From the NCBI GenBank assembly GCA_041178085.1, contig JBEGVZ010000087.1, forward strand, positions 1-19,746: a DNA stretch of 19,746 bases, given 5' to 3'. The stretch's first letter is position 1; every line of letters begins with the position of its first letter. This DNA is from Pseudomonadota bacterium (lineage in GTDB: Bacteria; Bdellovibrionota_B; Oligoflexia; Oligoflexales; RGVZ01). Of this stretch, positions 9,001-12,000 are shown piece after piece. The position numbers were made by a program.

Positions 9001-12000
9001 ACCAGCGCCCAAAGATCGAAGATTACGGGCACTATTACTACGTGGTCGCACGCATGGCCGACGTGCAGCGGCAGGAAACGTCGCTCGAGCAATTCAGCCT
9101 TTTTTTCGGCAAGGGTTTCGTCCTGTGCATCCAGGAGCACCCCGGAGACTGCTTTGACCCGATCCGGGCGCGCATCCGCGGCGGCAAGACTTCCCTCTAT
9201 GCTCACGGATCTGACTACCTGGCTTCGGCCTTGCTGGACGCTGTGATCGACGACTTCTTCCCCCACGTGGAACGGATCGCCGACCGCCTTGAATTACTGG
9301 AAAACGAGATCATGAGCGCGCACGGCAAAGACACCGTGACGAAAATTTACGGCATGCGTCAGGAACTGCTGCAGATCCGCAGGGCGATTTGGCCGTTGCG
9401 CGACGCGCTCGGAATCATGCACCGCGAACAATCCCCGCTGGTGGACGCGGGTACCCGCTTTTACTTCCGGGACTGTTATGATCACACCGTACAGATCATC
9501 GATGCTTTGGAATCCTACCGCGATCTTGTCTCCAGCATGATGGAAATCTATCTGTCGAGCGTCAGCTACCGCCTGAACGACATCATGCGTACACTGACCG
9601 TGATCTCGACCCTGTTCATGCCTCTGAACCTCATCGCTGGAATTTACGGCATGAACTTCCACACTGAAAAGTCGCCCCTTAACATGCCAGAGCTGTCTTG
9701 GTACTACGGCTATCCATTCGCACTTGGGCTCATGGCGGCGCTGGTTCTTGTGCTGATGGTTCTTTTCCGTTGGCGTGGCTGGCTTAAAACATGACCTGTC
9801 AAAGGTAGAGCCTGACCAATGGCCAGATCCAGTCGACTGAATTTTGAGTTGCTGAAGGTTGCGCGCGGATCGCGGGCGCGGCTGACGCGGTTTCGTACCT
9901 TGCACAATGAAGTCACGACACCGATCTTCATGCCGGTCGGGACCTTTGCGACAGTCCGCACCCAGCCCCTCGATGTGCTGGATGAACTGGGCGCGCAGGT
10001 GCTGCTTGCCAACACTTTCCACTTGATGCTGCGCCCCGGGCCGGAACTGTTCCGCAAGTTTGGCGACATCCACCGCTTCATGCGCTGGCCCAAGTCGGTC
10101 CTGACAGACTCCGGCGGGTTCCAGATTTTCTGCCTGCCAGAAGCCCGCCAGATGACGGAGGAAGGCGCGCGTTTCCGTGCGTACACCGACAAGCGCGAAA
10201 TCCTGCTTACGCCAGAACTCAGCATCGAAATGCAGAAGACCATCGGTAGCGATATCATGATGGTCCTCGACGAATGCATCCCCAGCACCTCGCCCCACGA
10301 AGTGGCTCGCGCCGCCATGGAACGCACGCACCGCTGGGCAGCCCGCTCGCTCGCGGCCCGCGGGGAATCTCCCCAGTCGATGTTCGGCATTGTGCAAGGC
10401 GCCTGCTACCCGGATTTGCGACAGGAAAGTGCGCGCGTGCTGACCGACATGCCGTTTGACGGTTTCGCCATTGGCGGGCTTGCGGTCGGCGAGACTTCTG
10501 CGGAACGCGAGGACTCAACAGCAATCGTAACCGAATTCCTGCCACATGACTTGCCTCGCTACCTGATGGGCGTGGGCACGCCGCGCGATTTGCTGGAGGC
10601 AGTCCACCGCGGCGTGGACATGTTCGACTGCATCCTGCCGACATCGCTCGCGCAGCAGGGAGTTGTCTTTACCTGGAATGGCAAGATTGACCTGCGACGC
10701 GGACGTTACCGCATGGACGACGTTGAGCTTGATCCAGATTGCCACTGCAACGTCTGCCGCAACTACAGCGTGGCCTACCTGCACCACCTGCAACGGGTGA
10801 AGGAACCCCTGGCCTGGCAATTGCTGGCCACCCACAACCTTACTTTTTACATGAAGCTGATGGCGGGCATGCGCGCAGCGATTGCTGAAGACCGCTTCCT
10901 TGAATTTTACCAGCAGCACCGCGAAAACCTTGGGCGTTCGGACGGCCTTGATCCACCGAAGCGCAAACCGGCGCACAAGAAAAGCAAGCCGCCGCCCCGC
11001 CAGCTGGGTCGCTTCGAAGTGATCGAACGTCAGATGGAAACTGGTGACGGTCAGCAATGCGCGCAGGGCAGCATCCGCGACCTGGCTTCGGGCGAAGTGA
11101 TGCACTCTGTGAACGACCCGCAAGAAGAAGCTAGGCGCTTGTACATCGAGCAATCCGGTCTGCCCGCGCTGATGCAGGAAAACACCACCGAACCTCTGGT
11201 CGTGTGGGATGTCGGACTGGGCGCAGGCTTTAACGCCATGGCGCTGATCCGCGCCTACGAGGAACTCGTGGAACAGGGAACGACCCTTCGTCCGCTGCAT
11301 CTTTGCAGCTTCGAAATCGACCTTGATCCGCTGCGTCTTGCCATAAGCAATCCATGGCTTTTCCCTCACGCGCGCCACCCAGGACCGCACCTGATCGCAA
11401 GTGACCGCGTCTGGCAGTCAAAAAAACTTCCTGTGAAGTGGCAGCTTTTCGAAGGTGACTTCCTTGCGGAACTCGACCATGCGCCAGCGCCACGCGTCAT
11501 CTTCCACGATCCGTTTTCGACCAAGGTCGATGGCCCCTTGTGGCACCTTGAATGCTTCAAAAGGATCCATGGCGCCGCCACCGGCGAGGACTGCATGATG
11601 CTGACGTATTCGCGCAGCACGGCCATTCGTTCGGCCATGCTTGCCGCAGGGTTTTACGTAGGTGCCGGACTCCCTTCAGGTCCCAAACCGGAAACCACGA
11701 TCGCGGCAAAACGGGGCTCGGATATCACCCGCTGTGGCCGTCCGTTGCTGGGTGCCGACTGGCTGGCCCGCTGGGAACGCAGCCAAGCCCGCTTCCCGGC
11801 TGACATAACATCCGAAAAGTTCACGGAATTTGAGGGGTTGATCAGGACGCACCCGCAGCTCTATGATCATTGAATGTCCACTCTGATTGTCGAAGCGCTC
11901 GTCATCCTGGTCCTGATCGCCTGTAATGGCGTACTCGCCATGTCTGAAATCGCCGTCATTTCGGCGCGCAAAGCGCGCCTGCAGCAGATGATCCAGAAAG

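Follow-up and report, generated by a model that had tools for sequence, protein, structure and literature searches.

A second bacterial tRNA-guanine transglycosylase fused to an MnmC2-type methyltransferase, a candidate enzyme for N-methylated preQ1 in RNA

Known transglycosylases and amine methyltransferases

To our knowledge, 7-deazaguanines in bacterial tRNA are known solely on the queuosine route, at G34 of GUN tRNAs. For the bacterial tRNA-guanine transglycosylase (Tgt), of which structures from Z. mobilis (1efz, 1q2r) and E. coli (10fa) are available, the catalytic and pocket residues have been listed (PMC5699537) and V233 has been assigned a role in excluding queuine (PMC6165067). The MnmC2 enzymes, also called MnmC(m) or DUF752 proteins, act on tRNA and are recognised by hallmark motifs (PMC3527978). 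A pathway combining both types of reaction has been described for phages, in which DpdA2 and DpdM make mdPreQ1 in DNA; according to this report, a transglycosylase inserts preQ1 and methylation of the amine follows as the second step, and the deoxy form of the methylated preQ1 nucleoside has already been synthesised as a standard (PMC10516641). Moreover, one sentence of a preprint names TGT-MnmC2 fusions among four other MnmC2 fusion types (bioRxiv 10.1101/2023.12.21.572861).

The protein described here has the architecture named in the preprint, whose sentence on it neither proposes nor tests a function and is silent on the paralogue status and on the loss of RxxR reported below. The phage system resembles the pathway that we propose, but it differs in its DNA substrate and in DpdM, which is described as a metal-binding DUF3109 protein and not as a Rossmann-fold MnmC2 (PMC10516641). 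The DpdA model NF041059 scored 13.3 bits on the fusion (cut-off 200), and the methyltransferase half had no match in 50,697 phage records. With no match in these phage records, a phage or DNA-modification system was rejected. The initial annotation had presented the putative product as an undescribed tRNA nucleoside; as a base it already occurs in phage DNA (PMC10516641), and the fusion has been catalogued (bioRxiv 10.1101/2023.12.21.572861).

The fusion gene

The window is the whole stretch of 19,746 nucleotides that was analysed (GCA_041178085.1, contig JBEGVZ010000087.1, order Oligoflexales). The relevant features are as follows.

8682..9794, +, corA, the upstream neighbour (context; among the loci compared, in the own genus only)
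9819..11873, +, fusion gene tgt-B::methyltransferase, 684 aa in a single frame
9873..10928, +, Tgt-B domain, aa 19-370, TIM barrel and zinc site (Pfam TGT, residue alignment, structure comparison)
10626..10661, +, altered RNA-side helix past the nucleophile, aa 270-281, with I272, S276 and Q279 replacing Z. mobilis V282, R286 and R289
10944..11006, +, basic and proline-rich linker, aa 376-396 (model pLDDT below 50 at 382-388)
11007..11864, +, MnmC2-fold SAM methyltransferase, aa 397-682 (model pLDDT 96.6; structure search)
11205..11234, +, SAM-binding motif I and the next Asn, aa 463-472 (residue alignment)
11508..11516, +, catalytic DxF motif (D564, F566), equivalent to Aquifex D193 and F195
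11745..11861, +, C-terminal extension, aa 643-681, typical of the fusion methyltransferase clade and lacking in the classical stand-alone MnmC2 of the order
11874..13196, +, CNNM/CBS/CorC membrane protein, beginning directly past the fusion stop codon (context; among the loci compared, in the own genus only)

A 1,961-bp contig from a separate study (run X4, study P3) spans positions 9838-11798 with 18 substitutions and no gaps. Thus, the join between the two halves is no assembly artefact. This contig and the many homologues of the same architecture rule out an assembly chimera, and a pseudogene or a relaxed domain was rejected because dN/dS against the closest relative is 0.04 for the Tgt half and 0.13 for the methyltransferase half. 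The C-terminal half has 792 matching proteins; among the matches listed, PF01702 is present in 120 of 120 and PF05430 in 119 of 120. In the full-length model, the relative placement of the two domains is unfixed, as the pTM is 0.59.

The initial annotation, which had postulated one reading frame joining Tgt to an MnmC-type methyltransferase, is borne out by Pfam, TIGR00430, NF033855 and the independent contig, and the motifs that it quoted (DEC, GGLAVGE, DVGLGAGFN and HDPFSTKVDGPLW) are all present in the sequence. Both unfused proteins could also be located in the same genome: a Tgt at C8:14807-15796, where the contig ends about 40 residues before the C terminus, and an MnmC2-like protein with QDPFSPAKNPSMW at C60:9051-9827.

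The transglycosylase half

Pfam TGT covers residues 19-370 of the fusion (7e-139), TIGR00430 passes its curated cut-off (434 versus 306.75 bits), and the fold agrees with that of the Z. mobilis and E. coli enzymes (TM-score 0.93-0.94 on the target, rmsd 1.8-1.9). D97, S98, D151, C153 and Q193 of this domain, Tgt-B, correspond to Z. mobilis D102, S103, D156, C158 and Q203, and G220, V223, E225 and D270 to G230, V233, E235 and D280. Among 69 Tgt-B domains, the equivalents of the catalytic D102 and D280 and of the pocket residues S103, D156, Q203 and G230 are invariant, as are C153 and V223, the equivalents of C158 and V233 in a preQ1-type pocket. The zinc ligands C308, C310, C313 and H339 (Z. 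mobilis C318, C320, C323 and H349) are likewise kept, the Cys in 69 of 69 domains and the His in 68, the remaining one being lost at a contig end. We take C158 to be a residue that sets the type of the base pocket, preQ1 and not queuine. A queuine-inserting Tgt was ruled out by the retained V233 equivalent, and preQ1 is the inserted base that the pocket residues suggest. The catalytic residues are fully invariant, as expected of an active transglycosylase rather than of a scaffold like QTRT2. Furthermore, the dimer-interface residues, aromatics included, and the equivalents of K52, G263 and D267 are conserved. Near the base pocket, E157 is replaced by Q in 45 of the 69 domains, and A195 is a further change; DEC is a minority form among the family, which has Q there in 100 of 112 cases.

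Unlike bacterial Tgt, Tgt-B is a second copy that forms its own paralogue clade in the Tgt tree (support 0.918), carries a C-terminal methyltransferase and has lost the RxxR arginines. Both arginines (R286 and R289 in Z. mobilis) are present in 113 of 113 other (canonical) Tgt domains and in none of the 69 Tgt-B domains; on 50%-identity representatives, counted for fused rows only, they were found in 0 of 36 with a readable motif. The strongest Tgt-B-specific changes, V282I, R286, R289 and N304R, cluster. Therefore, the description as a complete bacterial-type Tgt holds for the catalytic and pocket residues and for the TIGR00430 score, but not for the RxxR pair, and the protein is a separate paralogue.

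R286 and R289 are reportedly the residues that read U35, as worked out by Xie et al. in 2003. A literature search for this role yielded nothing beyond the placement of Arg286 beside the R34/P35 pocket. The loss of RxxR suggests that the target of Tgt-B has changed. U-G-U recognition may survive because the equivalents of K52, G263 and D267 are kept and N304R could compensate. One may speculate that a Gln at the R289 position would fit A35 anticodons, such as those for Phe, Ile, Leu and Val. The genome holds all four GUN tRNAs, each with U33, and inspection of its 14 G34 tRNAs revealed no unusual feature.

The methyltransferase half

Pfam Methyltransf_30 matches residues 547-631 (2.5e-9). NF033855 reaches 59.7 bits on residues 425-627, which is below its cut-off of 136, as it is for the classical stand-alone MnmC2 of the order, with 1 of 75 genomes passing. 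The best structure matches (3vyw, 2qy6 and 3awi) identify a DUF752/MnmC2 fold with an N-terminal beta module, and Aquifex MnmC2 (3vyw) aligns over 239 residues (Z 24.9, rmsd 3.0). Related folds include the rRNA m4,2C synthase 8vyd (Z 15.0, rmsd 2.6, 176 residues aligned) and spermidine synthases. All MnmC2 features were found, namely the GxG and Asn of motif I, the DxF of motif IV and the substrate-stacking Tyr of motif VI. D464, G466, G468 and N472 are present in 52 of 52 fused domains. The view that the motif is unlike that of MnmC is not correct for the catalytic positions, as D564, F566 and Y597 align with Aquifex D193, F195 and Y225.

In contrast to MnmC2, the fused domain belongs to a clade separate from the genome's own MnmC2, occurs in genomes without MnmEG, and has changed residues on the pocket side, where M428 replaces Y/F and Y471 is lost. 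Stand-alone members of the clade occur away from tgt; 16 of 18 are in genomes with Tgt-B, although these genomes are related and the cases are not independent.

Distribution

Among 75 genomes of the order, each at least 85% complete, Tgt-B was found in 44 genomes of seven families and the whole methyltransferase in 30. The initial count of fused forms (35 of 95 genomes) is similar in kind, with different sets of genomes. Of the 44 Tgt-B genomes, 13 have a truncated methyltransferase or none, so Tgt-B does not require methylation. Moreover, an intact Tgt-B is kept in six genomes of 91-97% completeness (G019, G020, G023, G024, G029 and G069) that have no methyltransferase of the fusion clade, which indicates an independent role for Tgt-B; for the Tgt-B of L115/L116, dN is 0.029 at saturated dS. 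Another Tgt match and QueA are each present in 43 of the 44 genomes, and a full classical MnmC2 in 37, including the genome studied here, which also has MnmE and MnmG. QueC was above the cut-off in none of the 44 (5 of 75 in the whole set), and these genomes thus depend on salvage.

Outside the order, another Tgt match accompanies Tgt-B in 15 of 15 genomes of other groups and in 9 of 10 of an Acidobacteriota order, and QueA was found in 23 of 24 Tgt-B genomes. QueC is above the cut-off in 10 of 15 genomes and QueF gives full-score matches in 21 of 24, from which most carriers there are predicted to make preQ1 themselves. A salvage-only lifestyle as a general rule was therefore rejected; it holds in the order, while QueC and QueF are common outside. 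In the 15 genomes, neither classical MnmC2 nor MnmM was found, and the fused methyltransferase is the sole NF033855 match in 12; MnmG, whole or in pieces, is present in 11, which fits a role at U34 there. By contrast, MnmG was found in none of 21 and MnmE in none of 5 Acidobacteriota genomes searched. The whole fused methyltransferase is present in 11 of the 21, of which 10 have QueF, and it is under purifying selection (dN/dS 0.06-0.17, 5 pairs). As there is no MnmG, nm5U34 is an unlikely substrate in the Acidobacteriota carriers. Cultured carriers are Oleiharenicola lentus, Horticoccus sp. and Cephaloticoccus.

Proposed function and alternatives

Our preferred reading, to which we give a probability of roughly one in three, is that Tgt-B puts preQ1 at a site that the canonical Tgt does not serve and that the methyltransferase caps the amine. 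As a second active transglycosylase, Tgt-B would replace a guanine with preQ1, which in this bacterium would come from salvage via YhhQ, at an RNA site outside the canonical Tgt/QueA/QueG route, most likely G34 of a tRNA with a non-GUN anticodon. The tethered MnmC2-type domain would then transfer the methyl group of SAM to the free 7-aminomethyl amine, as MnmC2 caps nm5U, yielding 7-(methylaminomethyl)-7-deazaguanosine; the cap would be dispensable in some lineages. The fusion and the exclusion of nm5U point to preQ1 as the methyl acceptor, and insertion presumably precedes methylation. The putative N-methylation of the preQ1 amine, as put forward initially, gains support from the intact MnmC2-fold enzyme, its separate clade and the selection in Acidobacteriota without MnmG and MnmE. 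Position 34 has become less secure, given the lost RxxR, the coexisting canonical Tgt and QueA, and the persistence of Tgt-B without methyltransferase. With less confidence than in this mechanism, one can extend it to a tentative general picture: a widespread second Tgt family with changed anticodon specificity may place a 7-deazaguanine at non-GUN G34, and a dedicated MnmC2-derived clade may cap it to N-methyl-preQ1, in parallel to queuosine. Both the tRNA nucleoside and the class of sites that carry it would then be new.

Unlikely, though first among the alternatives and in line with the initial annotation, is that the normal GUN tRNAs, or some of them, receive preQ1 at G34 from Tgt-B and that methylation diverts it to N-methyl-preQ1, which would end the pathway in place of queuosine, possibly in a condition-dependent way. 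The preQ1 pocket, the retained K52, G263 and D267 equivalents and interface aromatics, and the four GUN tRNAs with U33 are compatible with this, and the evidence against nm5U34 counts equally for it. However, RxxR is gone in 69 of 69 domains, the retained canonical Tgt and QueA would be competitors at the same site, and Tgt-B copies that lack the methyltransferase are conserved although they would then be redundant.

We consider it rather improbable that the methyltransferase targets another RNA amine, exocyclic or on a different modified base, near a site bound by Tgt-B, or that Tgt-B is a partner of the canonical Tgt that recruits the methyltransferase to the anticodon loop. The M428 and Y471 differences, the kinship with the rRNA m4,2C synthase and spermidine synthases, the clade members away from tgt and the conserved dimer interface would agree with such roles, whereas the invariant catalytic residues favour an active Tgt-B over a QTRT2-like scaffold and the stand-alone members mostly occur with Tgt-B (16 of 18, in related genomes). 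Still less probable is methylation ahead of insertion, with free preQ1 or a different salvaged deazaguanine as the substrate and a Tgt-B specialised for inserting the methylated base. The changes near the pocket (E157 to Q, A195) and the salvage dependence in the order, with QueC above the cut-off in 0 of 44 genomes, speak for it; against it, MnmC2 enzymes work on tRNA (PMC3527978), the pocket-size residues C158 and V233 are unchanged, and carriers outside the order mostly make preQ1 (QueC 10/15, QueF 21/24). The weakest alternative is a fusion of convenience, in which an ordinary MnmC2 methylates nm5(s2)U34 in tRNA-Lys/Glu/Gln unrelated to Tgt chemistry. In its favour, the core residues are all of the MnmC2 type and the nearest experimental structure is an MnmC2; of the 15 genomes from outside the order, in which MnmM was not found, 12 have no NF033855 match other than the fused domain; and within the order, where an MnmC2 is spare, the domain was lost repeatedly. 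Against it, the domain is intact and selected in the 11 Acidobacteriota carriers that have no MnmG, 37 of 44 genomes of the order hold a classical MnmC2 as well, the domain forms a separate clade and scores 60 bits (cut-off 136, which the order's classical copies mostly miss too), and 520 of 968 MnmAEG bacteria, by the preprint's count, lack both MnmC1 and MnmC2 anyway (bioRxiv 10.1101/2023.12.21.572861). This alternative also leaves Tgt-B unexplained.

If Tgt-B does have another target, or if methylated preQ1 is an end product, Verrucomicrobiota, Acidobacteriota, Myxococcota, Bdellovibrio relatives and others would have a new nucleoside and a further branch of the queuosine pathway, which would stay hidden because the fusion proteins are annotated simply as Tgt. 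Moreover, a Tgt of altered sequence specificity would be a useful tool for RNA labelling.

Gene neighbourhood

Among 104 neighbouring frames at 30 loci, no queuosine gene and no dpd cluster was found. An operon context was rejected, as the sole neighbours common to many loci are antisense shadow frames. RNA-related neighbours in this set, each as a single case, are Thg1, Dus, a U32 peptidase, an EVE protein and a DEAD helicase.

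The fusion gene and its surroundings

The joining of a Tgt and an MnmC-type domain on a single open frame, as described in the initial annotation, is real and widespread. Within the 684-aa product, Pfam TGT covers residues 19-370 (7e-139) and Methyltransf_30 residues 547-631 (2.5e-9), and the NCBIfam models TIGR00430 and MnmC2 score 434 bits (cut-off 307) and 59.7 bits (cut-off 136), respectively. A contig from run X4, which stems from a study other than that of the best holder, covers positions 9838-11798 without a gap. The C-terminal half matches 792 proteins; the 120 matches listed are all Tgt fusions and carry names from Bdellovibrionales, Opitutaceae, Kiritimatiellia, Binatia and Spirochaetota. 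An AlphaFold2 model of the full fusion contains two well-folded domains (mean pLDDT 91.7), whose relative placement is not defined because the pTM is 0.59 and the linker 382-388 is disordered. At the Myxococcales locus L019, the two domains are encoded by adjacent frames instead of one. The window contains the following features:

4058-4954, minus strand: 298-aa frame, no Pfam match; its C-terminal part presumably resembles ImmA/IrrE-type regulators
5137-7993, plus strand: ordinary clpS-clpA pair
9819-11873, plus strand: fusion of a Tgt paralogue (Tgt-B) and a methyltransferase, 684 aa
15337-16278, minus strand: 313-aa frame, no Pfam match; it has a CxxC zinc-ribbon pattern at its N terminus and by eye looks like an IS transposase

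The Tgt half belongs to a separate paralogue

The Tgt half superposes on the Zymomonas mobilis Tgt. A set of 182 distinct, near-complete Tgt domains, from which those with short coverage or unknown residues were left out, splits cleanly in two by Arg286 and Arg289 (Z. mobilis numbering). Both arginines are present in 113 domains, all of them unfused (113 of 113), and neither in the other 69, among them all 58 with a whole or partial in-frame methyltransferase. In a FastTree tree of these 69 and 60 canonical domains drawn at random, the Arg-less domains group together in a single clade (support 0.918, stem 0.46), which was named Tgt-B. None of the 36 fused representatives with a readable motif (best 150 at 50% identity) has both arginines; one keeps R289 alone.

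The equivalents of D102, S103, D156, C158, Q203, G230, L231, A232, V233, E235 and D280 are invariant in all 69 Tgt-B domains, the zinc ligands and dimer-interface residues nearly so, and those of K52, G263 and D267 are retained. The roles of such residues in catalysis and in the base pocket have been described (PMC5699537), and V233 blocks queuine (PMC6165067). The sharpest Tgt-B-specific changes are grouped after the nucleophile, namely V282I, R286 to A, Q or S, R289 to Q and N304 to R. R286 and R289 reportedly read U35 of the U-G-U signal, as Xie and co-workers are said to have found in 2003. Arg286 also adjoins the R34/P35 pocket (PMC5395182). From the loss of both arginines, we infer that the RNA target of Tgt-B may have changed.

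An extra copy beside the queuosine route

Tgt-B occurs in 44 of the 75 genomes of the order Oligoflexales sampled at a completeness of at least 85%, nearly always in addition to another Tgt. A further Tgt match was found in 43 of these 44 genomes, the exception being G034 (86% complete); for 30 canonical loci of the order the motif was confirmed, the others being assigned from their score and frame length, and the copies of G052 and G057 are fragments. Outside the order, a second Tgt is present in all 15 genomes sampled among the matches listed (80 of 600 candidates), with RxxR in all 14 that were obtained as loci. In one Acidobacteriota order, 10 of 41 genomes carry the fusion and nine of these also a canonical Tgt. 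QueA accompanies Tgt-B in 43 of the 44 genomes of the Oligoflexales, three of which have it split into fragments, and in 23 of 24 elsewhere; the Tgt-B genomes being mutually related, these co-occurrence counts are not independent tests.

In the window's genome (96% complete), the queuosine genes comprise QueA, QueG, the transporter YhhQ and a canonical Tgt that is truncated at a contig end; no QueC was found, and QueF gave only sub-threshold matches. MnmG and a classical MnmC2 are present too. This gene content indicates that the organism makes queuosine by the normal route from a salvaged precursor, and the fusion is an addition to it. Two genomes, G026 and G068, have three Tgt genes each, one canonical and two Tgt-B, of which one lacks a methyltransferase. 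G006 and G007 (loci L128 and L129) lack QueA and have a divergent Tgt as their sole copy, which may reflect direct queuine salvage.

Tgt-B without its methyltransferase

In the 44 Tgt-B genomes of the order, the methyltransferase is whole in 30, truncated and degenerate in five (G068, G071-G074), cut by a contig end in one and absent from the fetched flanks of Tgt-B in eight, of which G047 is frameshifted. The methyltransferase-poor cases are scattered over several branches of the tree, and fused forms are sisters to some of them. Stand-alone members of the fused methyltransferase clade exist elsewhere in six of the 13 genomes with a truncated or missing domain; overall, the search yielded 19 such proteins from 18 genomes of the order, and Tgt-B is present in 16 of these genomes. 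No member of this clade was found in G019, G020, G023, G024, G029 and G069 (91-97% complete), yet in these six Tgt-B is slow-evolving and its catalytic residues are all retained. This distribution shows that the methyl step would be optional for Tgt-B. It also favours a target of its own for Tgt-B, because a duplicate acting on GUN tRNAs would be redundant in the six methyltransferase-less genomes.

The stand-alone proteins at loci L252-L270 (about 280-340 aa) form a third class of MnmC2-like methyltransferases within the fused-domain clade (support 0.948); they share its C-terminal extension, lie away from any tgt gene and lack conserved neighbours. At L121-L124 and L133, the methyltransferase joined to Tgt-B is cut before DxF and has a degenerate start, and the dN/dS of the remnant is still 0.11-0.18; of the five genomes concerned, four belong to the window's genus and the fifth to its family.

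The methyltransferase half

Folded alone, the METHYLTRANSFERASE half (pLDDT 96.6) finds its best structural match in Aquifex MnmC2 (Z 24.9, rmsd 3.0, 239 aligned), followed by the E. coli MnmC domains and then spermidine synthases. The key features of MnmC2 are motif I with an Asn, DxF, whose D193 is the proposed catalytic base, and Tyr225 (PMC3527978). They align to D464-N472, D564/F566 and Y597 of the fusion, and 50-52 of the 52 fused domains keep them. By all the features that could be checked, the half is therefore predicted to be an intact amine N-methyltransferase. The fused domains form their own clade apart from the ordinary MnmC2 of the order; unlike the latter, they have M428 in place of Y/F, have lost Y471 and carry the C-terminal extension. 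A classical MnmC2 domain within a 593-aa open frame at L204 (G026, contig C98) is perhaps another fusion.

Proposed reaction and alternatives

TGT-MnmC2 fusions are mentioned in one sentence of a preprint that gives no function there, and its supplements may say more (bioRxiv 10.1101/2023.12.21.572861). In a literature search with few subscription papers and a 2026 review (PMC13602947), neither a function for the fusion nor 7-(methylamino)methyl-7-deazaguanine in tRNA was reported. This base occurs in phage DNA, in which DpdA2 inserts preQ1 and DpdM, which is unrelated to the fused domain, then makes the methylated base (PMC10516641).

The most likely reading, with a probability of roughly 35%, is that Tgt-B replaces a guanine with preQ1 at a position that does not belong to the canonical set, probably G34 of a tRNA with an anticodon other than GUN, on which QueA would not act, and that the tethered domain then methylates the preQ1 amine as a cap, with SAM as the donor. 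The initial annotation had placed the same two steps on GUN tRNAs. Its N-methylation agrees with an intact MnmC2-type domain that is kept in genomes without MnmG, and its site is less favoured by a Tgt half devoid of RxxR; there, Tgt-B would duplicate the canonical Tgt and be redundant where the methyltransferase is absent, yet it is kept. This version ranks second and appears unlikely. Action on another RNA amine, or a helper role, is rather improbable, and methylation of the free base before insertion still more so. Together, the non-canonical-site, GUN-tRNA and free-base readings give methylated preQ1 as the outcome a probability of about two thirds. The gene neighbours of the Tgt-B loci were of no functional help.

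The least probable alternative is a plain nm5U34 methyltransferase, since the fusion is intact and under selection in 11 Acidobacteriota without MnmG. MnmC2 needs nm5U34, the product of MnmE and MnmG (PMC3527978). A search of 21 Acidobacteriota genomes (G083 and 20 of the 41 from the Acidobacteriota order) found no MnmG and gave only matches of about 100 residues, taken to be TrmFO-like; two of three other genomes searched alongside exceeded 750 bits. MnmE was found in none of five. The whole fusion, its core methyltransferase residues included, is present in 11 of the 21, all of these but G124 with QueA and all but G083 with QueF, and five pairs gave a methyltransferase dN/dS of 0.06-0.17. 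Being selected without a known source of nm5U, the fused methyltransferase most likely has another substrate there, for which the aminomethyl group installed by its Tgt-B partner is the obvious candidate. In the Oligoflexales, 37 of the 44 Tgt-B genomes have a full classical MnmC2 alongside (fragments in four, none in three).

A U34 role may still apply outside the order: of the 15 genomes there, 12 have no MnmC2-family match besides the fused domain, additional matches in G078 and G085 fall into the clade of that domain, 11 have MnmG, either intact or fragmented, and MnmM was not found in any of 25 genomes searched. However, 520 of 968 MnmAEG bacteria are reported to lack both MnmC domains anyway (bioRxiv 10.1101/2023.12.21.572861).

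The fusion is predicted to work like a Tgt followed by an MnmC2-type amine methylation. It departs from each family in one defining feature, RxxR of canonical Tgt being missing and the co-occurrence of MnmC2 with MnmEG not holding, and is best classed as an uncharacterised family of Tgt paralogues. The 21 MnmG-less Acidobacteriota are G083, G084 and 19 kin, and a single contig of another genome (G082, C243) carries two full-length MnmG matches.
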